From: Patellaria atrata CBS 101060
Taxonomy: Eukaryota
Assembly: GCA_010093705.1 (NCBI GenBank)
Contig: MU006105.1
Span: 287,960-351,959, forward strand
Length of the DNA: 64,000 nucleotides
Direction: 5' to 3'
Shown: positions 9,814 to 64,000 of the stretch, in pieces
Layout: each line of letters begins with the position of its first letter
How positions within the stretch are numbered: the first letter of the stretch is position 1
Program-made: the position numbers and the translations under genes
The notes under the pieces: model-generated
Seen by the model: the letters and a program-made list of their open reading frames with translations, nothing else
Databases searched by the model: none
Told to the model about the DNA's origin: nothing

Positions 9814-12800
9814 CTAGAACTCTCTCTCCCACAGCCTCTTCCCCTCAATCACATTCCCCATATGCGTTCTCGCAAATGACTGCCCACGCATGCGGTGCCC
9901 AATCCATCCCTTCAAGAACGGCAGCGGTGAAGAGCTAAACGGCGACTTCTTCCATTCCCGCTTCTTCGGACGGGAGTCTGGCGGCACGAATAATAACGTT
10001 TGAGGATCAATGCCCAAGAAGTATAGCAAGCGCTCGTATTCCGCGCTATCTTTGAGATACAGTGCACCTGCATAGAGCTTCAGCGCGAGGAGAGTATCGA
10101 GCGATACCTCATTACCTTTGGACCAGGCGCCAACGACGAGAACATCTAGGTGGGAGAAATCGACCATCGTCTTTGTTATCTGAGGTGCATATACATGCAG
10201 GCTGATGTATTCTGACGCTCGAATATCTCCCATGAGTTCGTTCGCTTCCCAGGGGCTTATGATGATAACTTGTGATCGCTTTCTTGAAGTCAGCACCCAA
10301 TGTACAGGACGTAGGTAATTATCCGCTTTCTCGCCAGCTCGGGCTATTACTGTTCGCAGAAAGTCCCGAGTAACGAAAAGGTTTGAGCATATGTCCTTGA
10401 ATGTAGAGAGTTTCGAAAATGACGAGACTTTCGTGATCGCTTTGAAAGCTTGGACGACTGTTGTGGCTTCGGTCGGAAGCTTGCCTTTCCTTACGAAATG
10501 CACGATATCATTGCTGACGGCAGGGACCGTAATCGGGCGTTTTGGGGGTCGCTCGGTGTGCTGTTCCCGTTCGACTTCTGGGTCAAGCTCTCGAATTTGC
10601 TCCTCCTCAGTCCGAATATTCCCCAGACCGGATCGGTTTACCAAGGTCCAGCGGTTCCGAAGCTCCTCGATAAACGGCTCTGTATCGTACAACTTGATGG
10701 CTGTTTCGATCTGTTCTGATCGGGTGTCAGAAGCTCCATACAGTTGTTCTAACCCTTTCTCTTCCTGCTCGACTATCTTGCTGCTGTATTCTTCAACAGC
10801 ATTCTGATCACGCACAGCCTCTTGGATTTCCCGCCCGTCTAGAAGCTTTGTGAATTCTATCTCCTTCCTAACGAATTCTACACCTTGAGTCACCCAGAAT
10901 GGTAAGATACGTTCATGTCTATCACAGGTTTCTTGGATACACCATTTGAGAACATGTTCTGATGTGAGATTCTCCCCTTTGCTCGTTTTTTGCAGACCGA
11001 GGCTGATCTCCGGAGACCCAATAAACATGATAGAGTGGCCGAATCCGCCTAACTTACGCATCCTCATGCAAGCTAGATTACATGATTAGTATATAAGTAA
11101 AATATTAGAGCGAGTAGATTATCTTACCTTGTACTAATTTGTCCTTTACAAGGCCTGGACCTAGAGTTACAGCCGCGCGAAACCCATCTGGCATAACCAG
11201 ATCAACACCGCGAGTGTGAACTTCGTCAAAATAGACAAGGCAACTCTCAAGGTTATGCCGATATGGTGATGAAACAAAGCGATACGAGATGTTAAGACGG
11301 TCAATCACCATCAATTCGTCATGCTCATCAAAATAGAGAGCGGCTTCTGCGTCCGGAACAACCTTTAACCATTCTTGAACCACTTCAATATTTTGCATCT
11401 CTAGAACTTGTGCTCCAACGTCGATTAAGGCACAGACATTTGGGCTTTGCTCTGATATAAATTGTAGTAAGTCCGGAACAGATAGTTTTCTTCCTTGTTC
11501 ATCAGCTGCAAGCATATACGTCCGGTTTTCTTCTCGGATGATATAATTCATTACGAGCGCATTTGTATGCAAGTTATCGTCAATATCTTCCTGCTTAATT
11601 GACAGCGGAAGAAGATCTCGAGTATCATTCGTTCCGCTGAAACCCGTAGTGATGTGTCCGTTGGATGGTGCAGGAATATCCCAGCTAGATGCTCCCAGCT
11701 TCTTGTGGAATGTTTTCGCCTCTTTTGGAAAGACAATTTTGTCCATGAAGTAATCACACACCTTTTTGTTATACTTCAAGTGGGGAAAAACGTCTCTGCA
11801 GCACGTGATGTTATCCCCGAGATTGATGCTTCTCAGATTCATGAATCGAGCTGGCAATCCTTGCGCGGACTTCGCCCAAGATGCGTAGACATCCGAACCG
11901 GTCCTCTCCTTCTGGAGCTGCTCAAAACATTGAAAAATTTGAGAGTTCGTTAGTCCATGGTAGTAATAGCTTAAGCAGGTAAGCAGAAGAGCGCAATCTG
12001 GATGCGCAAATTCGCTAGCTATGGAGGGGACTGATTTCGCCCGGTAAGGGACTGCCATTAGACAACGCTTCAAGTCAAGACCATACTCGACAAGCCAGCG
12101 CTTCTTCTGAAGAGCAAAAAGTAGGACTCTGTGTCCGATGAGACCACGAAGAGTGTAAAATACGACTCGCTGTCGAGGGTCGGATCCCACGAGCTGATTG
12201 ATCAGATTTGCATCACCTTCACTTAGGTCCTGACCCTGTATGAACCTGAGAATTGCCTTCTTCGAAGAACTGTCAAAGTTGAAGGAAAAGCACTCAAGTC
12301 TCCCTTGGGCTATGCATTGCAAAAGTCCTTGGAGTATCCTATCACCAATGCTGGCATCTAGAAAACTCAGAGTAGGGAAACATCCCGGCCTTTCATCTAC
12401 TTCTAGACTTCCCGGCTTCTTTTTAACCAGGGAACGAACAACAAAAATAACTTGTGTCAAGATGTCTTGACAGATTGTCCACCGTTCAGCATGACCGTCA
12501 ATGGGTTGCTGCGTTCCCACTGTATAAACCAGCTGGTATCGAGGATCGAGAATCTCGTCGCTTTCGTCCATTACATCACGAGTATTCCTCCGCAGCCATT
12601 CGTCTATTCGAATCAGCTGTCCTCCAAGAGCAGGACGAGTCTGAAGTTTCTCCCTGCCTGACAGGCGGAAGGATAGCATATACTCTGGGAGTGTAACATG
12701 CACTGCTCTCTCTTTAATGCTCTCTCGGTAGAGACATTCTAATCTTGTTAGTAGAGCTGGGCTCACGTCCGATGTCCGCGTAAAGGGTATCGCGAATACC

Positions 12801-15800
12801 CTACGATTGATCAGGCCACCAAGACGTTGCGAGAGGAGTCGATGTGTTTGAGGAAGCAGAGGCTTTAGGGATACGACCCGAGCAAGTTGTTCGCCGTTGG
12901 CAAGAACCGATACCACCATTGGTATGATGACAGACGATTTGCCTTCACCCATGTTGAGCTGGGTCACGAAGTTCGAAGTCTGAAATATCATTTTCTTTGC
13001 AACCAAAACCTGAATGGGACGGATTCTAAAGTCGTTCTCCAGTTCCAAAATCAACCAATCTGGGAACCCCCCGACGTCCCAGTTCCGCGGGCCCATATTC
13101 TCGAGCTCTTTGTTGAACATTACAATGTTAGCTGTTGCGGCAAATCGAACAAGACGCTCTGCCTGCTGTAGATTTGCCAACGCTTCTCCATAACAAATCA
13201 GAGCTGGTTTCCACGCTGGTGGTAGCTTCGATATCTGTGTGGATGCCAATCTAGCCAACAAGGTTTGCGGAGTCAGTTTCGGCCAGATGCCCGCTTCTCG
13301 GAACATGATTGAGGAGTCATTCTCTGGCTCCAGTTTCGCGCGGATTATTTCGAAGACTTCCCAAACATACTTCAAACATGCACCTTGGTAGGATGCAAGC
13401 TGTACTGTGTCAAACGGGAGTTCCGGTGGTAAAAGTGGTCGCTCATGCACCTTCAATGCGTTTAAGCTCTTCTGCAGTTCTTTGCCATAATTTCTGACGG
13501 TGAGATGCTTGTCAGAGATTAATTCCCCCGTGATGTCTTCAAGATCATGAAAGCTATCTTGAGTATCATTCCTCTTCAGGAGAGTGGTGGCCCTCAATCC
13601 GGATGGTGGAGACGGCAGCGATGTTGGATGCGAACTGTTGGAGAGAACTTCCTCTAGAGACGGGGCTGGTAGGTATGGTGCTGAGGGTTCTAGTGTCGGA
13701 GAGGTGATTTGGGGAGGCTGCAGTAGATGTTGAGAATGCGGGCAATTCATCACGGATAATACCCCTTGGATCCTCTGAATACAGTCGACAAATTTATGAT
13801 TTCTATAGATATCAGAAATGTAATTCGTAAGCCATCGCATCGAATTTTCTCTGGGAGTCCACGAGAGACTCATATAAGTCGGTGTCTCGACAATATGCTC
13901 AGTAGGCCATCGGTCCATTAACTGACGAATAAAGGTGTCGATCCCGGCGTTCAGCTGAGGGAGGTCAATTCTTTGCCTCTTCGTTCCCCTAGAGATCGAA
14001 CCAGATCCTTTCAAGATCTCAATGCGTCGTAACTCCGTTTCCATCACATTCCTATCTGGTTCTCTTGGTGCCATGAGGTCAAACGATCCTGATCCCAGTC
14101 GGAGGTCTCCCGAAAATTGGCCTGAGATGGAAATCGCGATAAGTGCGCGCAAGTGTTTCTCAATATGTGGCACACCAAAGGCAATAGTCCCGAACGTAAA
14201 CATCAATTTATATACTCCGTTAGCTGGAGTTGAATGGCGGCAGAGCTCGAACAGTGAGCCCCAATTGCCTGGGAGGCACATTTCGATGAGCTCTACAATC
14301 GAATGTTCTTCGAAGACTGTCCCGAAGCCGGAAACCTTAGTCCAGGTCATCATTGTCTGTAGGAGGTTTGTGTCAACGTTCAACGATTTTGGCCATTCGC
14401 TGATTATATTGCTGATATTGTAGCAACGCTGGGCATCGGGATTAATTCCGGAATCTCTTGACTTATACAATCTGTCCAAGTTTTCCTCATTAGCATCGCT
14501 GGCGGGGAGATTACTTCTAAACCTTCGGTTCTGCGCATGGGCTTTCAGGAGAAGGAGCTCATCTCCCTGATGATTAGGCTGGATTGCATCCACCCGTGAA
14601 GACGTCAGCGTTATGAGATATTCATTGCTCGCGATGATACCCCTGACGGCGAAAACAAACCCTTCATGTTGGTTGAATTTCGGGATGGACTTGTTCCATT
14701 CAACCTTTTCCTGCACAGTCATGTCGCGGGGGTAAAACTCGCGCTTGGGAGTTAATTGAGCTATGAGCTCAAGTATCTTCATCTCCTCACTACCAAGAGG
14801 AGAACAAGGTCTCAAGGAGCTCTCTCCAAGACGCCGTAATGCCTCTTCAACCCCAGTAAGACCAGTAAGCTTATCTGGAAGAGCAGAGCTCGACACAGCA
14901 TGTAGATATATGAGGAATAGTGCTGCAAGTAATTCCGGTGGTGTCTGAAGCTTACACAGATTTGTATCTACCTGGAAGACGAAATAACGCACCTTTAGTG
15001 CATCTTTATTGTGGATGGTCACAAGAGTGTGATCAGATGGCTCCTTGCTAATGGAAGTTTCCACATCGCCATATGGTACAAGGACTAGCGTTTTTCCACC
15101 CTGGTTCCTGTTGTTCGACTCTTGTAGTATGAGCTTGCTTTCAACTCCATGAAGAGTTGGTAGTGTTTGCGAAGAGGCTACAACACTACCATACTCCGGC
15201 GACTCCAATTCTCCATTGGAGTTAATAAAAAAGTTCAGGTCGTACCTGGGGAGTTCAACTTCCAAGCGGCCCTGTGCATTTGTGTACACATTTATCAACT
15301 TCTTTTCTTCAATGTTAGAGAAAATCTCACAGAGATCAGAGGCAATGTCACTTTTAGGATTGAGTAGAATCTTTGTTCCGGAGGTTAAAACATACTTCTC
15401 ATCTTCTAGAGTCAGACTCCATGGTGTATCGTCCCACGGCGACTGCAGTAATCTAAGGTGAATCGTCTTCGTTTCAATATCGATCCAATGGAAGTAGCCT
15501 TTTGTAAAAGACTTCGGCAAATTGTAACTCAACCGCCTATCATCGATAAGTTCCAAGATTTGTGTGCACTTTTCCGCTCTGATGAAGAGTGTGCCGTGAT
15601 CGAGCCCAAAGTGGACTTTATGTCCTTCAATCGGATGTGGATGCATATACTTCATACCTGTCATGTCGGAAGGACAAGCACTTAATTTACTCTTGTGAAA
15701 AAGTCTTCCGACTAGGTGGGAATCTCCATATAGTGTCGGGAGTTGCCCGAACTCTATACCCTCGACGTAGAATTCTCCAGTGAGGAGATGAAAATGAATC

Positions 15801-18800
15801 CGCTGTTTATTGCGGTTAGACATCGATTGGGTGAGGGTTGTGACCCAACCCTTCCTATTGTCGAATGAGACGGGTCTCCAAGGTTCCACAATTGATAACG
15901 AAGGTATAAATCGAGATAACGCTTGAGACATCCCGTCCGAGATAGTATTCTTACAGATAGCGGACTCCAGCTTAGGACTTACAGTGTGACTTATCCTTTG
16001 GGTGCGCGTGGTTATGTGCTCTCCGGAGAGGTGAATGAGGATTGCTGTCTCGATGAAGATAGCAATGGTGGTCTCGTCAGCGAAAACGTCGTCCAAGAAT
16101 TTACCATCCACATCCACTGTGTGCTGACAAAGTGCAGCAGCTTTAAAAAGCATGGTCTGGAATTTGGATTGACTTTCATCCTCACCAATGCGCTTGTATA
16201 GGTCTCTACACCATTCCATAGTTGAGCTGCGCAGATCCCTCAAGTAGTCTAGGGCTAACCGGACAATCTCTTTAGAAGGCGATAGTGACAATGTTCTTAA
16301 ACATATGTCAATAAGGATAGAGATACAGTGATGTTCGCTCCAATTCCCCTCGCTGAGTAGCTTCCTACGAGATACCGCATCTAGAAGAGCATAGCAGAAT
16401 GATGCATCCTCAAACAAGAAATGTGATTCCCTTCTAGCGGAACTCTTGTGTTCTGTCCCAGTCTGCAATGATGCTTGGGTGAAAAGCACAACAACAGGTT
16501 CCGTATATATCAAGTTCGAGCTGGATAGCTCTCGCGCCATATTTAGCCACTGTAGTCGTTCTCCTGAACGCAGTGAGAGAAAAGCGTACTGCAGGTTCAG
16601 ATCCAAATCATGTGGACAAGCACCCTGCTCAGAGATGGCTCTATTCGCCGGTTCCAAAGGCGAGTTTACCGCCCACTGAAATTGCTCAAACGAACCGCTG
16701 GGCAAAGTTAGGGTACACTTGGGCTGAAAGGATAAGTCTTTCTTTTGGCCTGCCACCCATTGCGGTCTGTTTTTGTCCAAGTTCTTAAGATCCAAAAATT
16801 TGTAGTCGGCTCCCAGTGGCCTGATTATACTTTCGACAGACGCGTCTGAGAACTTCTCATATCTCCAATGAGCGACCATAAATGGCTTCTTGGATGTGCC
16901 GAGCGAGATGCGCGTTCTGGCGGAGCTGTTCTCCTGGAATGGCAATTCTCTTTGATTTGATAGTGTCTGTATGCATGGTTCTCCAATGACACTTTCATTC
17001 CTTGCTAGGTCTTGAATCACAAGCCATGTCGAGTTCCGCCAACACACAAAAGTCGTTGGTAAAAGAAGTTCAAAAACAATGAACTTCGCCTTGTGCTCAT
17101 CTGCTGGGAGTGGCTCCTCAAATATGGCTATTTTCATAGACTCGAACTCTCGCCGCTCAACGCACTTCTTGCATTGTTCAGGGACATGCCATGTTGCAGC
17201 CGGACCCAGAAAAGTGTGTTCCCGTCCGTAAGAGCGTGCTCTAATAATCTCGAACTTAGATTGTTTCTGGAAAAACTCTTGGATCTTCTTCTCGCGGTTA
17301 TCATGCGCTTTTTCGAGAATCGACCTCCGAAGCACCTGATGTTCTCTTGATTGATCAAAGTACTGCACTCCAAATGTCCCAGAGGCTGGATCCGCGAAGA
17401 TACAAGGGTTGTGTGGGAGAGCGGAACTCTTGCGCTCCTTCAAGTACGCTTCCACGTTTTGCAATCGCTCCATTTGTGCCAATTTTGGGAGTAACAAATG
17501 CTGAAATAGTTCCACTGGGACCTCGGGCGAAAACTCTAACAGCAAAGGAATACTCTCGGTAGCGATTGTGTCTAGGGCAACCCACAGTTCTGCTATTGTT
17601 AGATATGCGTTCGATAGACTAACGGGGTCGCATTTATAGTGGGCTGTTGCAAATGTTGCGTAATTCTCAAGCATATCTGCCAAGGCTTCAGCTTTATCAA
17701 TGGAGCCAGGAGTGACTGATCTAAGCCATTCGATCATCTTTTTAGCGACCCAATCTTCAAAATCAAACATCTCAATAAGGCTGTGATCTGATTCCGGAAG
17801 TTTTGGTGTGATCCCATCTTCATCATAAATCAGACCAAAGCATTCCTTAGGTTTGAATTCCTTTGTCTCGACTTCTTCTGACTTTCTTGACAACGCTTTC
17901 TTGATCGCGAGAAAATTTGCTCCAAAATGCAGCTTAGTGCAATCCTGGATTCTGCTCTTTTCCCAATCATATTTTGGAATCATCTTAGCTTCCTCTTTAT
18001 CTAATACTTTCTTCCATCTTTCTTCTATAATATTTCGAATGTCTGTGCTAGTCTGCAATAATTTCCTGGAGATGAACTTCATCGGATCCGTAAGTTTAGA
18101 CATTCGTCTAGCTAGCTTAGAGGAAAGTGCTTGTAGCATGTTCGTATTGATATCATTTCTGCACGCTAAAGTTCCAAGGCATCCAAGGAAGTATAACACA
18201 AATTGTTTATACATTGCTCGATGATCTCTTGGATTTTCAATCATTAGACGGCGGTGGATGGCGACTCTTAAGACGAGCCAGAGGGGGGATCGCCGCCATG
18301 GTTTCAGAGCATTCTTCCAGAGTATCTGATCCCTTGTTGCTTTCCGTAGCAGCTCGTACTTTTCCGTAGTGCCTAGTGCTCTCAGCATAGACGTGAGCTG
18401 ATGGGTTACGAGAGTGGGCGCTGACGCTCGGCGGATCTCTGGGAACTCTATTCCAGCTTTACGCGTCGTTCCGGAGAATCGAGTGACACTTTCGTTGTAT
18501 AGGTTTGCTATTCGCTCAACAAAGCAGACGCGAAATTCGGGGTTAGAAAGATGTGAAGCGGGAAATACCGCCCTAGTCCCGGGGAATAAGCGTATAAGTC
18601 GACCCTTGGTTCCGACTACATCTTCTTCCTGTGCTGAGGCCTCGAATGCCTCATAAATCACCAGATCCTCGGTTGTTCTGTGGACGGTCACCCCAGCATT
18701 TTGTGCACGGAGGAAGAGCGCAACAGTTTCTGTTGAATGATTAGGAGTCAGTGCATAGAGAGTGGTGGGTCAAAAGAAGACTGACCTCCAGGATTCATGT

Positions 18801-22360: not shown

Positions 22361-23143
22361 TCAAGTTCTTTTCATCTCCTCGATGACCTTTTCCAAATTT
22401 CCGACCTCATGCGCAAACCTTCCCAAAAATAATCCGTCCACGCCCTCCTTCAAATTTTCAAAGGTTCCTGGTCCTGCACTACCTCCATATAGAATTCTTA
22501 CTCTACCCTTCCTCTCCCCACAGATTCGTCTCAATTCCTTGGTGACGGCTACAACATGATCCTTCCCTGCTGGTTCACTAGCACCAATCGCCCAAACAGG
22601 CTCATAAGCAAATATCACTTCAGAGCCATCCGGAATAGCTGCAAGTGCCGACAACATCTGAGTTCTACATTCTCTCACAGCCATCCCTACGGCAGCAGAA
22701 GCGGGACCAGAGCTGGGTGCAGACACTTCCCCAACGCAGATTAAAGGTATCATCCCGTTTCGAACAACAGCAGCCGCCTTTTTCGCAATGTTGCCGTCAG
22801 TCTCGCCGAACAATCGTCTCCGCTCCGCATGGCCTAGTTCCACTATTGAGACACCAATGTCTTTAAGCGACTGCGGGGATACTTCTCCGGTAAAAGCACC
22901 ATAGTCTTCGAAATAGGTGTCTTGAGCGCCGAGTAGCACCGGGTCCGGGGTTGAGGAGAGAATTGACGCGCAGGAGGTTAAGTTAAGAAAATCTGGGATG
23001 AGAAAGAGATCGACGTTAGAAGCGGCTGCCAATGGTGCCAGGGAAGCAATGTTCTTAGTGTAAGATAAGGTGCGAGAGGGAGAGAAGTACATTTTTAGGG
23101 ACGTGCCGACGATACGACGCTCAAGAGGAGGGACTGGAGGCAT
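22361..23143 (-). CDS. Triosephosphate isomerase-family protein, non-canonical paralog
   Basis: TIM motifs SLKMYF (catalytic K), GAFTGEVS, ELGHAERR (H), AYEPVWAIG (E), LYGGSA. Confidence 0.9.
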   Translation of the reverse strand: MPPVPPLERRIVGTSLKMYFSPSRTLSYTKNIASLAPLAAASNVDLFLIPDFLNLTSCASILSSTPDPVLLGAQDTYFEDYGAFTGEVSPQSLKDIGVSIVELGHAERRRLFGETDGNIAKKAAAVVRNGMIPLICVGEVSAPSSGPASAAVGMAVRECRTQMLSALAAIPDGSEVIFAYEPVWAIGASEPAGKDHVVAVTKELRRICGERKGRVRILYGGSAGPGTFENLKEGVDGLFLGRFAHEVGNLEKVIEEMKRT

Positions 23144-23764
23144 TGTGCTTCAACTTGTAATTGCATAGCAGTTCTACTGTATAGCGCCTTCAGCAGAGTC
23201 CACTATTAGTTTCAGTATGTATAGTTCTGCCCAGGTTCAGGGACGATTGTACGGAGTAGTTCTCGTCGTATTAAGGTAGTTCTAAAGTGACGTACGTCCC
23301 GCTCCACGCCGTCCCACCGTTTAACTCTGAGATATCGAGCTCATCTCCGATGATGGCGGAGCGGAATCGCGGACTATAGAACTAAACTACTCGTTTCTAA
23401 CCGTCCTTCTTGTAGCACCCCGGTCCTGGAGCCCGTGGCCGGATTCCGAGAGGCCAAGGGGTCCTTGGTCCCTTGAACCCCCACCTTTTGTTGTCCCACC
23501 ACCCCAGGCTTTACTCTCGAAATTCTCCTCCGAGAGTCGGTCGCTCTGAAAAAAAAAACAACCAATTTCCCACATTAGTCCAGGCAAAGAACGAACCATT
23601 CTGTGGAACTCTGGTTGTGAGAAGCAATACATGCAGCGAGATCTAGTAGATCGCTGGGCCCGGGTCAGGTACTTCGGATAGGTAAAGGGGATTTACAGGG
23701 TTCGAGAGTGACGACGAACATTGAGGGGTCAATCTCCTAGGAGCAACAGGAGCTACGGACGAGG

Positions 23765-23979: not shown

Positions 23980-26080
23980 ATGCACGTCTCTCAGAAGCTT
24001 GAGGAGGGTGTCAAGAATGGCAAACCTACATTCTCCTTCGAGTTTTTCCCACCAAAGACTGCTCAAGTAAGTGATTGGAAGTCACTACAATAGCCGAATT
24101 TTCCTCCAACAACTAACTGTCTCTTGCTGTTAGGGTGTCCAGAACCTCTACGATCGTATGGACCGCATGCACGATTATGGACCTTCCTTCATAGACATCA
24201 CCTGGGGTGCTGGAGGCCGTATGTCACATCTCACGGTAGAGATGGTGAAGAATGCTCAATCAGTACATGGCTTGGAGACTTGCATGCATCTTACGTGTAC
24301 CGATATGGAGAAATCGAAGCTGGATGAGGCTTTAAAGCTGGCGTATAATTCGGGATGCACAAATATACTAGCACTAAGGGGAGATCCTCCAAGGGAAAAG
24401 GAAAAATGGGAGGCCACGGCAGGGGGGTTTCGTTATGCGAAAGACCTAGTGAAATACATCAGGGATCACTACGGCAACCATTTCTGTATTGGGGTTGCTG
24501 GATACTCAGAAGGTTGTGATGATCATAGGGATGTTGATCTTCTGATCGACCACCTGAAGGAGAAAGTGGATGCCGGTGCCACATTCATTGTGACACAGAT
24601 GTTCTACGATGTAGACATTTTCTTAGCATGGCTAAAAAAAGTGAGAGCTAAAGGCATTAATGTGCCGGTCCTTCCCGGAATCATGCCAATTCAAACTCAT
24701 GCTGCTTTCGAAAGGCGGGCAAACTGGACTAAATGTGCCGTTCCCGCGTCTTGGAAGGAAGCGTTAGATCCGATTAAGAATGATGATGCAGCAGTTCGAG
24801 AGGTTGGTAAAGGTCTCATCGCAGACATGTGCCGGAAGTTACTCGCCAATGGTATTAACCATTTACATTTGTAAGTTCATTCGTCAAGACCTTCTGAGAA
24901 AACCCATTAACAATCTAGTTACACTATGAACCTAGAAAAGGCGACCAGAATGGTACTAGAAGAGCTCAATTTGCTTCCTGACCTTGAAACCCCACTAGAG
25001 AAACCGTTACCATGGAGACAATCACTTGGCCTCAATCGTCGCGAGGAGAATGTCCGACCTATATTCTGGAGGAATCGCAATAGATCCTACGTAGCTAGGA
25101 CCCAGGATTGGGATGAGTTCCCCAACGGACGCTGGGGTGACTCTCGCTCACCCGCCTTCGGGGAGTTGGATGCTTATGGAATCGGTCTCAAGGGCACTAA
25201 TGAGGCAAACATCAAGCTATGGGGTATGCCCAAGTCCATCCAAGATATCGCCAATCTTTTTGTTCGATACATGCAGGGCAAACTCGAAAGTTTACCATGG
25301 AGTGAAGCCCCAATCTCTAACGAGGCTAATGTACTTCTCGATGATCTTGTCAGCCTAAACGCCCGCGGCTTGCTAACAATCAACTCACAACCTGCTGTCG
25401 ACAGTGCAAAGTCATCCCATCCTGTCTATGGATGGGGCCCAAAAAACGGTTATGTTTACCAGAAGGCATACCTTGAGCTCTTGATTAGCCCCGAGCTCAT
25501 TGCAGAGGTCATCACACGCATTGAGAGAGATCCAGAACTCACGTACTACGCCGTGAATAAGAATGGTGACCTCAAGACCAATGCTCCTGGTGATGGCCCA
25601 AATGCTGTGACGTGGGGTGTCTTCCCAGGGAAGGAAATTGTACAACCTACCATCGTCGAAACAATAAGCTTCCTGGCCTGGAAAGATGAGTTCTTTCGTC
25701 TTGGCCAGGACTGGGCAAATTGTTATCCATCTTCGAGTCCGTCCAGATACGTTATCCAAGATCTTATGGATACGTGGTTCCTCGTCAACATTGGTAAGCG
25801 AGAATAATGATTTATAGAACTGCGCAGTTTAGCTGATTCCTTTGAAATAGTGCATAACGATTTTCACCAAACTCATGGTATCTTTCCTATATTTAACGGT
25901 CTGGAAGTAAAAGGAATCGAAATACCTCTGCATTCTAACGGTATCAAACCCGAATCTTCCTCTCCCATCAACAGTCACACGATCGGCCCTACCAACGGGG
26001 AGCGCCTGAACGGCACATCGAATCGTATCTACGCAAATAGAGCATCTCAGCCAGTAGCTGTGACGAATGGTTATCAATAG
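23980..26080 (+). CDS. MET13: Methylenetetrahydrofolate reductase (eukaryotic, with C-terminal SAM-regulatory domain), 642 aa; exons 23980-24066, 24134-24870, 24919-25793, 25851-26080
   Basis: Motifs FSFEFFPPKTAQGVQNL, ITWGAG, MHLTC, LALRGDPP, VTQMFYD, HFYTMN, RPIFW, WDEFPNGRWGDSRSPAFG, NAVTWGVFPGKEI; three canonical introns keep the frame. The MET13 versus MET12 assignment is by recollection. Confidence 0.95.
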
Positions 26081-33925: not shown

Positions 33926-35110
33926 CTACTCCAGTAGTCCAGAGAGAGACTTTGAGCGCTGAGGTTCCACTTCGAGTTTCGACTTTGACGATCTTGGATG
34001 ATGCGACTCTGATTTCGAGCGAGGAGTATCAACTTCCGCGAGGGCGGCCACGATGCTCTTCTTAGGGCTTGTCCTATCGCTAGACTTAGACTTGAAGAAT
34101 GAGAATATGCTTGGACGCTTTTCCTTATCTGCATCTGGAGGCGAAGAGGGACGGCTCGTCAACTTCGGTTTTGGGTCTGTAGATAATTTCATGCCCTGAG
34201 GGAGCCCTGGTGAAGCCGGTGGTGTCATTTCGTATGCACCGCTGCCTTTCCACTTATCGTTAAGATTGTCTAACGCTTCTTGAACTGCCGGTTCATAAGC
34301 TGGGAACTCTGTCACGGTGACTTCGTGCAGGAGCTTTAGCTTTGATATCTCTTTTGCTGCGTGAATACGTTGTATACTCGGATGCCAGCCAATGGCTTTG
34401 ATATCCAGCTTCATCGCCCTCTCCACCTTTTCCCCAACACCCATAAGTTCGACCAACTGTGTCACATTCTCCTCAATCTTCTTGATATATCCGGCAAATT
34501 TTGCTTGATCGTTAATAGTCCACCGTTGCATCGTAATGCTATTCCCCCATGGTATCCTCACCCCTTGCACATGTGCCACATCCTGCAGCAAGCCAAACTT
34601 TTCTCTAAACCCCTCTAGCCGATTTGGGTCTACCGTGAGTTGCTTATATGTAGACTTCTTCGATCCCTTCAACCCATACAACTCCATCATCTCCTCTCTA
34701 CTCAAATGGTCCGCACGGTCCAAGATCTCATTGAGTAACTCTTTAACTCTCTTCCCCGTCTCCTCCTCATCGAGCCTCGGATCCCTCTCAAGGAAGTATA
34801 TCGGATCCGTAGGCTCGGGATTCATAGCGCCTGCGTGCGACGGGATCATGAACGTCGCGATGGTGGGCGGCGGTGACGAAATACCGACGATATCGCCCCA
34901 TATCAGGAGTCTAGCCTGCTGCAGCCCCAATCGTATGAGTAGAAGCTGTTCTTTCTTGTCCCAGTAGGGCGCGGGATCGATCATATTGAACACCTCGACA
35001 CATTGCGAGAAGAGATGCGCGATGACGAGCACGTTTGTCAGGACGGTTGCGGGGTCGTCTGCGGCCTCTGCGGGGGGCTCTGTGGGCCTTACAACTTCTA
35101 TATCTGCCAT
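33926..35110 (-). CDS. HeLo (prion-inhibition and propagation, HET-s N-terminal-like) domain protein
   Basis: LFSQCVEVF..LLLIRLGLQQARLLIWGDIVG and RWTINDQAKF..YI..I..NV..L match the HeLo pattern; C-terminal S/P/K-rich low-complexity tail. Confidence 0.75.
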   Translation of the reverse strand: MADIEVVRPTEPPAEAADDPATVLTNVLVIAHLFSQCVEVFNMIDPAPYWDKKEQLLLIRLGLQQARLLIWGDIVGISSPPPTIATFMIPSHAGAMNPEPTDPIYFLERDPRLDEEETGKRVKELLNEILDRADHLSREEMMELYGLKGSKKSTYKQLTVDPNRLEGFREKFGLLQDVAHVQGVRIPWGNSITMQRWTINDQAKFAGYIKKIEENVTQLVELMGVGEKVERAMKLDIKAIGWHPSIQRIHAAKEISKLKLLHEVTVTEFPAYEPAVQEALDNLNDKWKGSGAYEMTPPASPGLPQGMKLSTDPKPKLTSRPSSPPDADKEKRPSIFSFFKSKSSDRTSPKKSIVAALAEVDTPRSKSESHHPRSSKSKLEVEPQRSKSLSGLLE

Positions 35111-35855
35111 TGTTCCGCTGTTAGAGGTGATGACGGCGCAATTGACATGATATCTCGGAGGGAGAGCAGGGTACTATGTGAGCGGAGAGAATGCGATAAG
35201 AAAAGTCTTGGTGCGGAGAGAGGAGGCCGACGGAATGCCGTCACGTGTAGTCTGTTCTTTGTCGAGTAGGACAAACCTGAAGTGCGGAGTAGTTCTCCAG
35301 TCTGGTGGCTGGTGCATTGCAGATTCCAGAGATCGCTGAGGTAAGGTAGGGTCGCGGGGAACTAAAGTGGCTGGTTTCTGACTACCCATCTAGGTATCTT
35401 TACCCTTGGAGTGTTTAGAAAGTGGAGAATAACTTTTTTAATCAACAACTATAAATATTAATAGTCGGGATGGATGGTAGAGGCCTACCTAAGGCTGAAA
35501 GTTACATGAGATTCTCCCAATTATTAAACATTTACCCCTGGGAAGAGAGTAGTAGCTAAAACAAACATAATAGCCTAGGTATTTTTAATAAGGTAGTGGC
35601 AACTACCACTTAAATATTGCTATTTTTTACTCCTTAAAGGATTCAGATCCCAATAGATCAAGCCATCCGTACGGTAAGAACGGCTCAAGTGCGATACAAA
35701 TGGGTTCCAATGAAAACCATCGAGATCACCTGAAGCCTGACACTTGGCCATACGCCAAACCCTATGCAATAAGTGTAAAACCAATGCACTGTACAGATAG
35801 TGAACTGCTTAAGGCCTAAGAGAGGCAGATCTAGTATGCTAAATAATTCTATAAC

Positions 35856-48382: not shown

Positions 48383-50869
48383 ATGGATGACTCGCAAGTA
48401 TTCAATACCTACAGGACGTACAAAATTGGAACATCCAAAGTCCTACAATGGTTAGCCGAGACGTCTCGCTTTTTGAGCTGGACGTGAGCCCCATACCATC
48501 TCCAGCATCTAATCAAATGGTGGAAGTCCCCGTGCGGCGGTTCATGGACTTAGTAAGTCGTATTGTAGGAGCTCCTACGTCAATAGTCGTGCCTGAGCAC
48601 ATCATCCAAACTCTCGGAGACACGATCGATTTACGTCGGCAATGTGTGGACTTCTATGCTGAAAAGACACAGAAAAGGTCTGCAGAGCAAGGCCACACAC
48701 ACTTCATCAGTGTTCTGGAAGCAATCCTGCATTCCTTAAAGCCATTGTCTGCGTCAAAATCGAGGAACGTTCCCAAGGGACCTGGAGGTAAGAAGGAGAA
48801 GAAGCAAAGATCAGCGGCCTCTTCCGGGAAAGATGTGAGCAATTTGACCATTTTTTTTCCTCATCTGGAACTAGAGGAGATCACTATGGAGGTTGATAAC
48901 CTTTGATCCCAAGACTCTGCTGGAAGTGCCATGCTCCATCCCCGACAACCCCAGGATTGATGCACCATATCAGCTAGCCATGACAAAAGAAGAGACCGCC
49001 TTCGCAGTCACATATTTTCTCATGGATATCTATAGCACTACCTCGGACGTCAAGTGTATGTGGCATTAATACAGTCGCACTAGCCAAAGTCTTGTAAGGA
49101 CAGGGCTTACAACGAAACTTCTCAACGATATTATTAGCTCAAGCCGAGCGAGTTTTCTTCTCCAACATCCGTGAGAAAAAGACCTTCGAGGAACTCCTTT
49201 CTCACTGCGACTTTAAGGGAACAGTTGATCAGGACCCTGATAAAGCCATTCCTTTGAATGAAGCACTACTCACGAATTCCTTGCTCTCATATTGGTCCTG
49301 CATTAACTCAATCAGGCAAACATATGTGGGAAGTTGGAGAAAAATATTCTGTGAATTTGGCATGAACGAATTGAAACCCAATCAATTGGATTTCCGTTTT
49401 TTCGATCGTGTAACCAGCCACTTAATAAAAGAGATCAAAGGCGGGGGGCCGTTTGAGGATCTGATGCCAACAACATCGATGATGTGTACCAAACGAGCAC
49501 CTTGCATAGAAGATGAAATGATACGATTTATTCGGGATCACTTATGGGATAGTACTTGTACCATTCCCATATGGGTTCCAATGGCCGTAATGCGCTGTTT
49601 AGATACTCTTTATCCAATGGAGGATGAGGGGGGTAACCCAAAATCTTTCCGACGCGTGCTTGATGCTGCCTTATGTGCACACGATCATCTGGAGAGAACA
49701 CTTCGCTTCTTTAGATTAGAACCAGGAAAAGACGATCTTACCATGCGAGATTTTGGGCCGTTCGTGAATGATATCGAGCTCATAATCGCTAACGTCAGCC
49801 CCGTCTAGAAACCTATACAGTACAATCTAATACGTCCCTAACCCGTCATGTGCGGGCTTCCAGCATTCCGAATCCACTACTATATGCGTAAATTAGGTCT
49901 CGCGATCGTGAATAGCTACAAATGGATCCAAAGTACGGTTTATCTCTACGACGCCCTTCGCAGCAACGATCGGAGAGTGATGAATGGCCGGATATGGAAA
50001 CCGTGATTGCTCATCAAACCCGTGGCCATCTACTCCTCCCGGAAATTCCGCTGGAGTGGAATCAATATCGTCGTCGGTTCACGATGTTTACTGAAGGCAT
50101 GTCAGTCATGACCGTCGCAAAGGACGCTAGAAGCCGTGATAAGATAGGCGGGAACCCTCGCAACCTTGAAAGCCGCTTATCCTTGTGCGAGTTGCTACAT
50201 GCACGCTGCACTAAGGGTAATTCCGAAACGGAGACGGGTGACTTTGATATGGCCTCCATTGAATCGATCCTAAGCGAGCGCAAGACGTGGGAAACAAGAC
50301 ATCCATCACGGCGCCGATCGAACAAAAGAAATACCGTTGAACCCAAGGAAGCAAAGTCAGATAATGAACCGGTAAACACAGCCTCGACGCTATTCCTCGG
50401 AGAATTGAACAAAATAATAGATATAGAAGAGGAATATCTCTACTTTGACTACGCATGCATGACCTTCCGATGTCATCACCTCCTTACAACCTTACAGAAT
50501 GAGCTGGTGGAGATCTTGTATAACATTCGGAGTGAATGCAAAATGGATGATCAAGGGAATCCGACTCTCCGACCTTGGTTCGTGATGCTCATCTTTGAGG
50601 AACTCGATAGACTGCGAGGAGATGAAAGGAAGAGAGTGTTGACGATCATTGTTGAGATTATGAACAAGTTCATTCAAGAGGAAGGAGACAAGCAAACGGG
50701 CGAGTCACACCATCTTCTAAATTGGGAGACTGAGCTATATCCCAATCCGCCTGAGTCCTTTCGCGAGAGTGAGAGTGCGGAGAACCAAGAAGAGAATGAA
50801 AGTGCGGAAGGCCAGGACGATGATGACGGCGTCAGAGTAGAGAGCAATGTTGAGGGTCAGAAAGCCTAA
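48383..50869 (+). pseudogene. DUF6604-family pseudogene
   Basis: The N-terminus TYRTYKIGTSKVLQWLAET, then IDLRRQCVDFY, GHTHFISVLE, ETAFAVTYFLMDI and FDYACMTFRCHHLL, fits the family. The frame is broken by a frameshift near 48470 and by stops or shifts near 48904, 49066, 49151, 49806, 49839 and 49920. Confidence 0.75.
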
Positions 50870-51856: not shown

Positions 51857-53356
51857 TTATAGGGAGTGTGGTCAAAGGGGGGGTGGATCGGTGTATCAAA
51901 GGTCGCGAGGGAATTTGCTGTTTTAGGGGCTTGGGGGAGAGATTAGATGAATAGGAGTGAATTGAAAGTTTTTGGGCAGAATTCTGCAAGATGGGTAAAT
52001 TTGTTTTTTTATTCTTATTTTTTTTTTATATATATGTGTGTGCGTGCGAACTTGGCCGGTGCTCGGCCGGTTAAGCAGTGAGACGGGACGAGACGAGACG
52101 AGGGAACGGCGAAAGGTGTGGGTCCCCCCCTGGCCCATGGAGAGGAAGCTCTTACCGGTCCGTACATGTACTTCTATGTACGTGATAATGTGGTACAATA
52201 TGCGAGTCCAGCATCAGGAAAAAAGGGAGGGGCCGAGGGCTAAATGGGAGCATCACAGATCAGCAAGTCACAATTTGACTGAGGATGTAAATGCTAGACC
52301 GGATCGAATGAACATCCGATTCTTCTGCTGCGAACTGATCCGATGGTGGACGTCTGGTTGCTCGTGTCGACGGAAACATGATCGCAGATGTATGTGCTGT
52401 ACAAGTACCTTCCCGTATGTTGCTTTTGATTGCGTCCTGCTCTTGAACTTTCCCAAGATAAGGAGTTTGGTCCTGAATGCAGGTGTCAAATCCTTCTCAA
52501 CTGCCGTGCGTCTACATGAACACCAATGATGCCGCAGCTTCTCGAATCTTTCAACGGTTTATATACCGCATGCGGCATGTAGAGATCTGATTTCAAGGTA
52601 AAAGAGATGCGCTATGTCACATCATTATCTGACAGACGTTTCGCGCGGTAAACGTGGGTATGTGTAGTGTAAAATGTGAGACATTGCGATAGCACGGTGC
52701 ATCGGAGTAGTCCTATATTCGAGTGTACTTGAAATATAGGCGATATATGCGGAAGTTATGACGTATCGTGCGCGAGAGATGGGACTATCTGTTTGAGCCT
52801 GCTTGAACCTGTTCATTGTCGTCTCTGTTAGATTTATATGCCTCAATATATTGCTAGCAAATCGGGAAATTTATACTTGGAAAGTGAAACTAAACAAGTG
52901 GCTGTTACTGTGGAAGAGGGATGTTTGAACTGTCTCTTCTATTTCTTTTTGAGAAGGAGTACAGCGTCGGTTATACTGTCTTAAACCGAACCCGAAATGT
53001 TGCTGTGTCTATCAATCAAATTAATTGATACCGTCGAAAAAAATCCGTATAACCCAAACCATATAGTTAGTGACAATTTTACCGGCTCCAATACCCATAC
53101 CCATACCCATAAAGGCCATATCCAGTCCGATTGTGAAACCCAGAATACCTGAAACAACCGGAATACTCTTTTGACCCATATGCGTACAAGTTTTGGTGAA
53201 ACGAATAAAGGAAATTTTATCCCCTTCTAGAAACCAAATAGAAACTTTTCGACCAGTCGTTCCGGCCGTTTATCCCCTGTCCACTCCTCAAGCGAGGACG
53301 TGGCCGTCGGCGGACGGTCGGTATCATAAAGATACCAGCAACCAGATTAGGCTCAG

Positions 53357-54122
53357 CTACTGGATGCTTTTGAGCTTGACATTGCTGCAATGATAATTGC
53401 GTCAGAAAGTATGATTGATGAATGGTATCCATATCCAATCCAGAGATAGGGATGGGTCGTCTAAAACTGGGCTTCTAGAAATGTTGGGCACCTACAATAT
53501 CAGAGTTGAGTTAGGCGGAACAATTTTAAGCAATCCGGCACTAATTCAAAAGTACCCTGGTTAGTGATTTGATGAATGTTGATGGCATGTTCTCATTGGA
53601 GCACGCAGTCGGATAAGATCTATGATCGTATCATGCGGCGGGAAGGAATGGCAAAATACTCACCTGGAATAAGCATAATCACTGTGATAGGTTTATCAGC
53701 GTTGGTTGCCACTTGATGCGGTAGGAAGATATGGAAATAGAAGGGATTTCTATACGTACGGAGAGATCACCAGTAAAGCTTCCTCATCGACTGCCATACC
53801 AAGAATACCTTCATCTAAGCCTACAATCGGAATTGCAACGTGTCAATAGACCTGATTTGCTGTATAATACCTTGGGAAACAGGATTTTTACCTCTGATAG
53901 CACCACCTTGTCCGATGATGAAGGTACTTGTCCCGGTAGAAATCCTGCCAGATATTTCAGCAATGTCCATCAAAAAAGGGGTTCGTGGACATACTGAGTT
54001 CCCTTTTTGTCGTCCTGGGAAGGGTCGTATAACCACCCGGTATAGTCATAGATCACTTTATCCCCATGTTTCGCCGTAGCATCACCATTTCCTTGTTGGA
54101 TAATCTCTTTCTCCACGCCCAT
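53357..54122 (-). CDS. FKBP12-family peptidyl-prolyl isomerase-like protein, 110 aa, 6 exons (54122-53995, 53944-53892, 53820-53760, 53681-53664, 53540-53496, 53384-53357)
   Basis: Five GT-AG introns give an open 333-nt frame: MGVEKEIIQQGNGDATAKHGDKVIYDYTGWLYDPSQDDKKGTQISTGTSTFIIGQGGAIRGLDEGILGMAVDEEALLVISPDYAYSSAGLLKIVPPNSTLIFNVKLKSIQ. FKBP hallmarks: MGV, GD.V...YTG.L, IRG.DEG, ISPDYAY, PPNSTLIF. Confidence 0.92.
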
Positions 54123-56329
54123 TTCCGAAGTTAGGTTGGATGGTAACAAATGTGGTGAAGAAGATTACCCTGGTGTATCAGATAGAGCGTTTGGCGTCAA
54201 TATGAGTTAGACGAAGTTGAATTCCGCTAGAAACCCTCGGCCTTTTGAAGAATGGGCTAAGAGAGGAATTTGAAAGTTTGGAGTTTCGATTGAGAAGACA
54301 TCTCCAAGGAATTGGCATTTCAGTCTTTATGAATCTCCATTGACCTGCTTGTATCAGGTCATTAATATGCATTGAAAGCCAGCAAGCTAGTCCCTGGGTA
54401 CTTACCTGTACTGAATTCGGAATCGGAACTATTCGAAATAGCCACTCAATACCTAGCAGATGTAAATGAGATAGTACGGTGGCTGCTAGTTACTCCGTAG
54501 AATACATCCGATCCAACGCCGTTGAGCTGTGGTCGTGTGTTAGCATTCTAGCCCAGTGCCCCTCCGTCCGCGATTCGGCACCCTAAGCGGATCATCTTAG
54601 CTCTGCAGTAGAGTGATGAAGTTTCTAGGCGTCTCTATCTGGACTCTTTCAGGATGGGTTCGAGACAGGTAACCTGCTAGTCTGGCGTTTAGTCTTGATA
54701 CAAATCGAATGGGAAGACGTCGAGGTATTCTCCGATTGTGTTGTCAGCCCTAATCAGGCATGAGGGTTGCTTTGAAATGTAGTGCTCATTTGAAGCGAAC
54801 CATTTAACTTCTCGGCGTCTGCTCCGAATTCACCCTTACTCCTTGTGCGTCGTGTACGGCGTCGTGTATGCTTCTTCAACAGGGAATTGAATGAAGTTTT
54901 AAAGGTTTTGTTGTCTTGCAGAGTCGCCAGCGTTGCCAGCATTCTTCGCTTCGTGCATTGACAGACGTTGAAATTCTTTAAAAATGTCCGCGCGGCACTT
55001 CCCCTCAAACATCAAGCCGCGATATCCCCCTGAAAAGCTGCAGAAATCCCTAAGAACGAGGAAAGTTCGTTTTGTAAACATTTGACAAGCATGTATTTAG
55101 CCCTCTATCCCCGTCGACTTTTCAATGAGTTTATAGTTAGTACTTGGGAAACAAATATGGGGATCTGGGAAACCACATGGATTAGAGTTTGGAGAGGCAT
55201 CAGATAACGTTGAAGTAAAACTAGAACGTCCGTACTATGGCCTTTTTCAGATGCAGACGTATGAAGTGCAGTCAGCCACAAATTGACATGGACAATTATT
55301 TGCGCAGGTGAATTGCGCAAAATTCTGATCCTTTGCAGGAGGGAGCCTCTTAGTAGGCTTGATAACAACAGCATATGCATTCCTATACAGGCACCATCGG
55401 CTTATCATTACCCGAAAAAGTCATGCATGACATCGATATGTAGAGAGAAATCGTTGTTATCGTGTCATGCAGCTTTTTGATAGATTTTGACGCACACAAA
55501 CAAACCTGAGGATCTCATCATCCAAAAGGTACAGGTAATGATCAACTAGTACTCGAGTCATGGTCTTTAATGGATGTTTATATTGATATCCAATAGTAAC
55601 GGGGACGGATAGCATCCGGTCAAAATTGAGGCGCCTAATAGTTTATTCCCACCATAAACAGCGAAGGAAACAGATGTTTGAATCCGCTATGCTAGAAATA
55701 CATAAGTTCAAGATTAGTAGCTCTGATTCAGATACTTAAAACGGACGGCCCCGCTCTCAAGCGGTGGTTTGAAGAGCAGGGTAACCCTACAGTAGTGACA
55801 TGCTAGGCGTAATAGGCGTCTGGAGGGGTAAGTGTACTAACGCTATAATCGTAGCAAGCATTTGCACATGTAAGACGAACTTGGTTAAGGTGCTTTGGCA
55901 AGCAATACACTTGCAGGCTGCACAGAGTAAACGATAGGGTACTATCAGCCATCGGGTGCCCGATATCATGGTATGGGAAGACCCAATCAAACTCTATTAG
56001 ATAGGTGGAACGAATTAAAATCCTCGGCAACGGGATTAGGCCTTTGTCTTGCGCTTCAAGCGGCTGGTTGAAAGCTATCTGTTTCGAAGTCACCCTGTAT
56101 GTTTTCCTTCAAAAGCTTGTGGAGACGCCGTCTTCAGCCAATCGGTTTCCGATCGAATGTAGACTTGAGAGTCAAACAATCAAGACTCGGCTCCAGTTTC
56201 AAGATCATGGATTCCTCGGTCACGGTAGTCCACTCGGTACGGCTCGAAAAACCTAGTACTCACTCCTTTTGATTCAGTCCTTGACTCCCTGGTACGGCTG
56301 CGCAAACCGCGGATGTAAAGGTCTTGCCT

Positions 56330-62440: not shown

Positions 62441-64000
62441 ACGTGCTTCACCAGTCAGTGGGACACACCAGTCAGTGGGACATCCCACCAAAACCACCCC
62501 ACGTCTTCAACAAAATCAACAATGCCACTAACACAGAACCTTCAGAAGCCCCGGCAAGAAGGTAGGTTACTTATTACTACTAAGTCGCTTCAAGAAAACA
62601 GAATTTCAAGTGTCCGGAAGGCCGCCGGATTGTACGATGTTCCAAAGTCTACTCTCCATCGTCGCGTACATGGCATAACACCTTAGAGCGTGTCTAATTC
62701 GCAAAAACGAAAGCTACAGCTATCTGAGCAGCAGGCACTCGTAGAATGGGTCCTAGATCTCGACCGACGCGGATTTCCGCCCCATATCATCGAAGTACGA
62801 CGAATGGCAGACTATTTACTCGCGGCACGCGGCCAGAATCCTCCTCCCACACCCGCTGGTAAGAACTGGGTATGCCGCTTTATCAACAACCAGCCAGACC
62901 TACAGACAAAATGGAATAGGAAGTTTCATTCTCAAGGCGCGAAATGCGAAGATCGAGACATATTTCGCGAGTGGTATGGGCGTGTAAACGAGACGCGCCA
63001 GAAGTATGGCATCTTAGACGAAGATAGCTACAACTTTGACGAGACTGGATTTATGATGGGTGTATCTGCGACATCAAAAGTCGTTACAAGCTCTGATACT
63101 ATAGGCCAAGCAATTCTCATACAACCGGGCAATCGCGAATGGTCAACGGTGATTGAATGTATTAATGCCACCGGGTGGGCAATCCCGCCCTTCGTTATCC
63201 TTCCAGGAAAGCTCCACCAGTCAAGCTGGTATCAGGGTCTACCCGGTGACTGGATGCTCGCTGTTAGCGATAATGGCTGGACAACAAATAAACTAGGATT
63301 CGAATGGATTAAGCACTTTGACAACTGTATAAAGTCTTATACAAAGGGGGTCTACCGTCTACTTATACTTGACGGTCATGGTAGCCACGCAACGCCTGAA
63401 TTTGACCAATACTGTATGGAAAATTAAGATTATTACCCTCTGCATGCCGTCGCATACGTCACATCGTCTTCAGCCGCTTGACGTAAGCTGCTACTCTCCT
63501 CCAAAGGTTGCGTACGGTCACCAGGTTCAAGAGCTCGCCCGTCATGGAATCCACCATATTGATAAAGAAGACTTCCTAGCAATATATACTAAGGTACGGC
63601 TATCTGTCTTTACAGATCAGAATATTAGAAGCGGATTTCTTGCTACGGGCCTAGTGCCATACGACCCTGAGCACGTCATATCGTCACTTCTAATCACGAA
63701 GACTTTGACTCCACCAGGCACGGCTAATAGGGAAGCACCTCAATGGACTTCAGAAACACCACATACTACTGCCCAGCTAGAGCAGCAGGCAAAGCTTATA
63801 CGGGACATCCTTCGGCATCAGTCACAGTGCCCTACTAGCCGAGCAATCAATCAACTTGTTAAAGGATGCCAGATGGCGATGCATTCCGCTACCATACTTG
63901 CAAAGCAGAATATAGAGCTTCGTACAGAAAATTAACGTCGAAAACGGAAACAGCAGCACCGCCGAAGGTATATCGCGCATGGAGGGGCTCTACAGGCTCA
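62441..64000 (+). mobile_element. Fot1/Pot2-like (pogo, Tc1/mariner superfamily) DNA transposon, left part; runs off the window
   Basis: TA (62439-62440) followed by an ACGT-starting terminus with a 17-bp direct repeat CACCAGTCAGTGGGACA x2 (62449-62482); transposase gene downstream. Confidence 0.92.
62522..64000 (+). pseudogene. Disrupted pogo/Fot1 DDE transposase
   Basis: HTH_psq-like RKAAGLYDVPKSTLHRR, CENP-B-type HTH LVEWVLDLDRRGFPP, catalytic motifs NFDETGF, LILDGHGSH, LQPLDV; in-frame TAG 62684-62686, frameshift at ~63424, TAA 63933-63935. Confidence 0.9.

Follow-up and report, generated by a model that had tools for sequence, protein, structure and literature searches.

FK506 acts through the complex that it forms with FKBP12, and the available part of a report on Aspergillus fumigatus states that deletion of the one FKBP12 that binds the drug gives rise to resistance; several FKBP12 proteins are present per genome in this fungus, and the same excerpt attributes FK506 action to only one of them (PMC4569257). 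The pocket of FKBP12 is listed, in the accessible portion of the source, as Y26, F36, D37, F46, V55, I56, W59, Y82, I91, and F99 (PMC5114585). In the sections at hand of other studies, FK506 binding follows similarity to the FKBP12 active site (PMC6290070), a changed FD pair in FKBP51 abolishes PPIase activity, and the FK2 domains retain the fold without the site and fulfill a scaffold role (PMC6359276).

In this study, we show that a 64-kb stretch of DNA from Patellaria atrata CBS 101060 (the window, meaning the whole stretch that was analyzed) contains on its minus strand six exons which, when joined by coordinates, give 333 nt corresponding to 110 codons followed by TAG with no internal stops (Table 1). 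Patellaria atrata is a wood-rotting fungus. None of the stops, frameshifts, or lost splice sites by which a pseudogene is recognized was found, as the frame is open and every one of the five introns runs from GT to AG. The motifs CTGAT, ACTAAC, and CTGAC in introns 3, 4, and 5 fit CTRAY, which we take to be the fungal branch-site consensus. Exon 1 encodes the strands at the N terminus together with the long 30s loop that is typical of the Pezizomycotina long-loop FKBP12 type, and it matched four canonical members by tblastn with E values of 3e-12 to 1.5e-8. The region 52900–54500 occurs in two Logan assemblies of DNA runs, free of differences and gaps (0 of each) and with the locus unspliced in both; since these runs are probably the source reads of the P. 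atrata assembly, a local assembly error is excluded, but the sample is not independent. On balance, we consider it somewhat more likely than not, judging from the sequence, that the locus is a real, spliced, protein-coding FKBP-like gene, in a reading which as a whole includes the absence of both drug binding and catalysis.

Table 1. Exons and introns of the P. atrata CBS 101060 FKBP12-family gene, with two other genes of the window (positions within the window)
Feature	Position	Strand	Description
FKBP12-family gene	53357–54122	-	six exons joined by coordinates
Exon 1	53995–54122	-	ATG 54120–54122; codons 1–43; phase 2 at end
Intron 1	53945–53994	-	50 nt, GTATGT...CAG
Exon 2	53892–53944	-	53 nt; ISTG...IIGQGGAIRG, rewritten beta-5/40s-loop segment, V55A
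Intron 2	53821–53891	-	71 nt, GTAAAA...TAG; phase 1, in the Gly codon preceding W59/L
Exon 3	53760–53820	-	61 nt; LDEGILGMAVDEEALLVISP, helix with W59L; LGEK turn G-to-D
Intron 3	53682–53759	-	78 nt, GTACGT...CAG; CTGAT about 15 nt 5′ of acceptor; phase 2, in the codon preceding D of DYAY
Exon 4	53664–53681	-	18-nt micro-exon (..DYAYS.) with the Y80 and Y82 equivalents
Intron 4	53541–53663	-	123 nt, GTGAGT...TAG; ACTAAC 20 nt 5′ of acceptor
Exon 5	53496–53540	-	45 nt; AGLLKIVPPNSTLI(F), 80s loop, FPG to LLK
Intron 5	53385–53495	-	111 nt, GTAGGT...CAG; CTGAC ahead of acceptor; phase 2, in the Phe99 codon
Exon 6	53357–53384	-	28 nt including stop TAG 53357–53359; (F)NVKLKSIQ, last strand
DUF6604 gene	48391–48906 and onward		
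HeLo-domain gene	33926–35173		

The exon–intron structure can be compared with that of homologues recovered from metagenome contigs, which were scanned with a profile of canonical relatives; 593 of the 597 matching stretches were confirmed and 80 loci were kept. Introns were present in only two of the 80 fetched loci, L015 (positions 1501–2042 of a 16.7-kb contig) and L002 (positions 1501–1938 of a 145.5-kb contig). Both are canonical intron-bearing long-loop FKBP12 genes, with three introns in L015, two in L002, and different subsets in each. Because they carry intron-bearing fungal FKBP12 genes, both contigs are taken as fungal genomic DNA. In L015, the first intron interrupts the Gly codon that precedes W of ..IKG/WDEG (phase 1; the slash marks the intron), the second the codon ahead of D of DYAYG (phase 2), and the third the Phe codon of LIF/DV (phase 2), and introns 2, 3, and 5 of P. 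atrata coincide with them in position and phase; the counterpart of intron 2 reads AAG G/gt...ag/GT TGG. When spliced at the sites matching those of P. atrata, L015 encodes a clean canonical protein of 122 aa. L002 has the counterpart of intron 5 in the same position and phase and, one codon beyond intron 4 of P. atrata, an intron that splits the codon following AYGD in phase 2. As introns 3 and 4 both have counterparts in homologues, the micro-exon is flanked by two introns known elsewhere. In neither L015 nor L002 is there an intron corresponding to intron 1, KGKQFDSS being contiguous in both. The gene thus shares the introns of the Pezizomycotina long-loop subfamily at three sites (introns 2, 3, and 5), with intron 4 displaced by one codon. 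The six-exon model of the initial annotation, including its 18-nt micro-exon, stands in view of these common intron positions and of the 28.8 bits that exons 5–6 add to the family-profile score, which they lift from 79.6 to 108.4 bits.

Assignment to the FKBP family was seen with the profile PF00254 (FKBP_C), which matched a public 87-aa P. atrata protein from this locus, P0001, at 50 bits (E value 3.7e-13), above the gathering cut-off of 21.1, over profile positions 2–72 of 94. Among solved FKBP sequences, 112 were matched by P0001, and 8z28_A is the nearest structure that belongs to its subtype. Many of the proteins among the best 120 of 7995 profile-search matches were Dothideomycete proteins of about 124 aa with a long 30s loop (YTGWLYD..DNKG.QFDSSVGRGD..), and 51 long 30s-loop proteins of 105–135 aa from the matches listed served as the canonical set. 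With the family profile, the 110-aa model scored 108.4 bits (E 7e-35) against 184.7–236.8 bits for the canonical proteins, whose figures are inflated by their membership in the profile. Exon 1 scored 48.5 bits, which is within the canonical range (minimum 48.2, median 63.7, n = 51, members in the profile), and exons 2–6 scored 57.0 bits against a canonical minimum of 116.8 bits, the latter again inflated by members being in the profile. In the region of exons 2–6, the mean identity among canonical members is 76%, and it is 47% between them and the P. atrata protein, whose best identity to any canonical long-loop member is 52%. In a 38-row tree made of 35 of the 51 family members (mostly those with organism names), P0068, P0095, and the 110-aa model, the end branch of the P. 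atrata protein amounted to 4.74 changes per column (median of the tree, 0.17), a 28-fold difference, and its position among the Dothideomycetes was without support. The protein has the N-terminal MGV.. start and the YTG[WF]L..(8–10 residue insert)..KG.Q signature of the long-loop type, and lacks the FDSS-VGRGD, VI.GW, and AYG.RGFPG motifs. It is a member of the Pezizomycotina long-loop FKBP12 group by descent and not by motif.

With exon 1 or P0001 as the query, word-based searches retrieved nothing apart from the P. atrata protein, and among the 1947 matches (E ≤0.001) of a full HMMER search of 1.84 billion representatives, none of the single-domain relatives exceeded about 55% identity. The databases searched contained no relative in which the pocket is altered in this way, so the altered state is not known from a species other than P. 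atrata. There was no second FKBP copy within the window, where all other tblastn matches had E values of at least 0.23. None of the best 120 of the 7995 profile matches came from P. atrata, which gives no evidence against a canonical copy; the paralog of the initial annotation is only a putative one, and the gene may be the only copy of the long-loop subfamily in this species.

The residues of the pocket were numbered as in human FKBP12 by transfer via P0095, a 107-aa canonical protein that matches every listed contact residue. The heavy rewriting of the pocket described in the initial annotation was borne out in its particulars: ISTG stands in place of FDSS, AIRGL in place of VI.GW, and AYSSAGLLK in place of AYG.RGFPG; the loop stretch is four residues shorter than in the family; and the residues equivalent to Y26, I56, Y82, and F99 are retained. 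F36 and D37 are gone, R42 is replaced by T, position 46 by S, V55 by A, W59 by L, F at position 87 by L, and I91 by V. Only four are kept of the ten positions that are invariant in all 51 canonical members (Y26, F36, D37, V55, I56, W59, Y82, F87, I91, and F99). Set against the pocket list given in the literature, F36, D37, position 46, V55, W59, and I91 are lost or changed, and the residues are not those of a drug-binding or active FKBP12 (PMC5114585). Moreover, the G-to-D change in the LGEK turn together with G83S, P88L, and G89K alters glycines of turns and loops and a proline in a way that seems structural. These apparent structural changes, together with the four residues missing from a core strand, would fit loss of constraint as well as a new function. 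That the protein is drug-insensitive or non-catalytic can reasonably be supposed from the identities of the residues. A search of the available literature yielded no paper on an FKBP12 with W59L. A poorly active FKBP11 occurs in N. crassa, and a literature search on the FKBP set of that fungus returned nothing relevant.

The four missing codons, FDSS, fall exactly at intron 1, and the 11 residues that remain as far as ..IG can be aligned with VGRGD...IG without a gap. An alternative exon 2 that would restore FDSS was looked for, and a hidden exon or alternative splice form of this kind was ruled out: F[DE][STAG] occurs a single time in the three frames of 53200–54300, within intron 1 and three codons ahead of a stop; none of the eight frame-keeping alternatives to intron 1 restores FDSS; and a profile search of the three frames of the same region gave nothing further. 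Retention of intron 1 would introduce a stop nine codons past exon 1. For an introner-like origin of the introns there was no sign within the window, in which no further copies of them, intron 1 included, are present. The loss of FDSS coincides with a lineage-specific intron 1, and we propose that an intron gain or a splice-site shift probably removed the four codons.

It is possible, though doubtful, that the locus is a decaying relic, either a redundant duplicate or the fungus's own ortholog, which has lost its function and is drifting with its frame still open by recency or luck; this is the main rival to the reading of the gene as encoding an FKBP-like protein. Such decay is suggested by the 28-fold longer end branch, by the alteration of near-invariant columns (columns at least 90% conserved in the 51 canonical members), 25 of 61 of which are changed or deleted, including turn and loop glycines and a proline, by the disappearance of the FDSS strand at a splice junction absent from the homologues, and by the same state having been found in no second species. 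It is also suggested by third-position GC, which is 0.41 in exons 2–6 and thus at the level of the introns (0.42), against 0.46–0.59 in five other coding stretches of the window, a small sample. A stop-free frame is by itself not improbable under drift, as codons 44–110 remained stop-free in 0.28–0.34 of the runs of a neutral simulation with 40–46% residue change. However, a stop-free frame with all five GT..AG pairs intact was obtained in a fraction of only 0.0008–0.003 of the runs of the same simulation, which was substitution-only, ignored indels, used a crude mutation model, and took all excess change as neutral; in the gene ten of ten splice dinucleotides are intact, and introns 3–5 carry the branch-site-like motifs noted above. 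Uniform drift would likewise not predict an exon 1 that is as conserved as that of a normal ortholog while the rest is not: 14 conserved columns are kept and 2 changed in exon 1, against 22 kept and 23 changed in the remainder (Fisher p = 0.008). The 20 replacements at conserved columns are milder than neutral change, with a mean BLOSUM62 score of −0.20 against −0.85 to −0.97 expected from mutation of the codons used by a canonical gene (P 0.012–0.028). Many changed codons are two to three bases away from any consensus codon, which indicates that the divergence is old and not recent. RIP-type mutation was examined as a source of the changes and rejected, the minimal paths at the 22 changed conserved sites comprising 19 transversions, 11 G:C-to-A:T, and 3 A:T-to-G:C changes. 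These tests of selection are crude, with small samples and an approximated ancestor; taken together, they make long pure drift unlikely and are compatible with a recent loss of function. Some selection on the frame, which had been argued from the intact frame and splice sites, is likely in view of the conserved exon 1, the improbability of frame and splice sites under drift, and the mildness of the replacements.

Two other explanations concern the product and its role. The initial annotation regarded the gene as hidden, and this has to be corrected, because the public protein P0001, labeled "peptidyl-prolyl cis-trans isomerase" and found by the exon 1 search, shows that it was mis-annotated in a shortened form and not left unannotated. 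P0001 has the same exon 1/exon 2 junction as the six-exon model and consists of exons 1–4 plus R and a stop, ending in ...DYAYSR, since the exon 4 donor is read through (..TCC AG/G TGA, with the slash at the donor). If this annotated 87-aa chain were the true product, intron 4 would be retained, translation would stop at the TGA just inside it, and an FKBP fragment without its last two strands would result, which we regard as very improbable. Apart from the public model itself, what bears on it speaks the other way: intron 4 has a consensus donor, an ACTAAC motif ahead of its acceptor (Table 1), and a counterpart in L002; exons 5–6 encode the C-terminal strands of the family, in order and in frame, with the gain in profile score given above; and a domain deprived of its central strand could hardly be expected to fold. 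The same read-through error is present at the same spot in the public models P0056 and P0093, with non-homologous sequence just past AYG.R, whereas their relatives keep a normal C-terminus. In the Bipolaris maydis model, P0056, there is a 27-residue in-frame insert at the intron near AYG.R/GFPG, and in P0093 unrelated sequence follows past the intron at this place. The public 87-aa model is to be superseded by the 110-aa six-exon model, and the 3′-end annotation error near AYG.R/GFPG affects homologues in other fungal genomes too. The remaining explanation is a special case of the preferred reading of an FKBP-like protein without drug binding or catalysis: macrolide binding itself would have been selected against while a drug-independent role was kept. 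The concentration of changes at drug-contact positions, with signs of continued selection, agrees with such an escape, but many changes lie outside the pocket, and there is no biosynthetic or resistance context, the neighbors being a DUF6604 gene and a PHP-domain gene. Furthermore, one FKBP12 alone mediates toxicity in A. fumigatus according to the excerpt available, so that a cell escapes only once each FKBP12 that binds the drug has been either lost or altered (PMC4569257). As toxicity arises via the FKBP12–drug complex, an additional copy blind to the drug would be of no use to a cell in which a binding FKBP12 is still present and could protect only one from which they have all disappeared. 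The adaptation to macrolide producers that had been suggested for this gene is unsupported, and we consider selected drug escape quite unlikely.

The surroundings of the gene in the window were also inspected. No biosynthetic or self-resistance cluster was found around the FKBP gene, its neighbors being the DUF6604 and PHP-domain genes. On the minus strand at 11105–18769 there is an unbroken frame of 2554 codons with DUF6606, DUF3638, and DUF3645, a very large fungal protein with no assigned function. A Tc5/pogo-type transposase (HTH_Tnp_Tc5 and DDE_1) at 62687–63935 on the plus strand is split across two overlapping frames, and for this reason it is probably a frameshifted, dead copy. A short run of the hexamer CCCATA, with at least three copies, is found at about 53088–53113, roughly 250 bases past the FKBP stop, in the intergenic space toward the DUF6604 gene. 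Genes for triosephosphate isomerase (22361–23149, minus strand) and methylenetetrahydrofolate reductase (24134–25807, plus strand) are also in the window, and with housekeeping genes beside lineage-specific ones the FKBP gene is not in an obviously repeat-rich or accessory compartment.

By descent the protein is a cytosolic long-30s-loop FKBP12 whose ligand-binding and catalytic half has evolved very fast. We assume that the 110 residues still fold as an FKBP domain and that high-affinity binding of FK506 and rapamycin and prolyl isomerization have been lost; if functional, the protein may act as a non-catalytic FKBP-like binding or scaffold module, much as the dead FK2 domains do in large FKBPs. 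In light of the effect of the FD pair in FKBP51, the scaffold role of FK2 domains, and the way in which FK506 binding tracks the active site, a binding module without catalysis is the best guess. That the product is a real FKBP-like protein which neither binds the drug nor catalyzes is a claim we would rather accept than reject, on the sequence as it stands. We are less confident in a stronger version, which we think unlikely, in which an FKBP12 has been remodeled under selection in one fungal lineage into a drug-blind and non-catalytic form and a single event, in which an intron arose or moved at this very site, took out its FDSS strand. If this were true, the gene would be a natural case of a splicing change rewriting the active site of an enzyme, as well as a natural FKBP12 scaffold that forms no toxic complexes with FK506 or rapamycin. 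If the protein is made and folded, it would show in which of its parts the smallest FKBP tolerates rewriting without loss of the fold, it would point to a role of FKBP12 without proline isomerization or macrolide binding, and it would be a natural drug-blind comparator for engineered FKBP12 scaffolds.

The closest known proteins are the canonical long-loop FKBP12s, such as P0247 of Dothidotthia symphoricarpi, P0119 of Delitschia confertaspora, and the protein of structure 8z28_A, with which the P. atrata protein shares the MGVEK..GNG start. It has in common with the canonical long-loop group the YTGWLYD..D.KG.Q insertion, the length class, and the order of elements, and differs from it in that FDSS is gone, V55, W59, F87, and I91 are changed to A, L, L, and V, FPG reads LLK, and the LGEK turn has D for G. 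FKBP12-1 to FKBP12-3 of A. fumigatus are likewise small single-domain fungal FKBP12 homologues, and some of the FKBP12s of that fungus have pocket substitutions and no deletion phenotype in the portion of the study at hand; they differ from human FKBP12 at only 3–4 of 14 contact residues, whereas the P. atrata protein has lost 6 of 10 family-invariant ones (PMC4569257). Pocketless FKBP-like proteins are already known. The FK2 domains of FKBP51/52 and the third FK domain of wheat FKBP73 (3jxv) are described, in the available part of the source, as having the FK fold without a drug site or measurable PPIase activity and as serving as scaffolds (PMC6359276). In our alignment, Leu occupies the W59 position in the third domain of 3jxv as well (..VIEGLD..). 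However, these domains are internal to multidomain co-chaperones and widely conserved, whereas the P. atrata protein is free-standing, 110 aa long, and known from one species; what would be new here is a pocketless protein that is a free-standing FKBP12 in a single species. The likeness to the PPIase-dead FK domains points to a possible mode of working and not to close descent.
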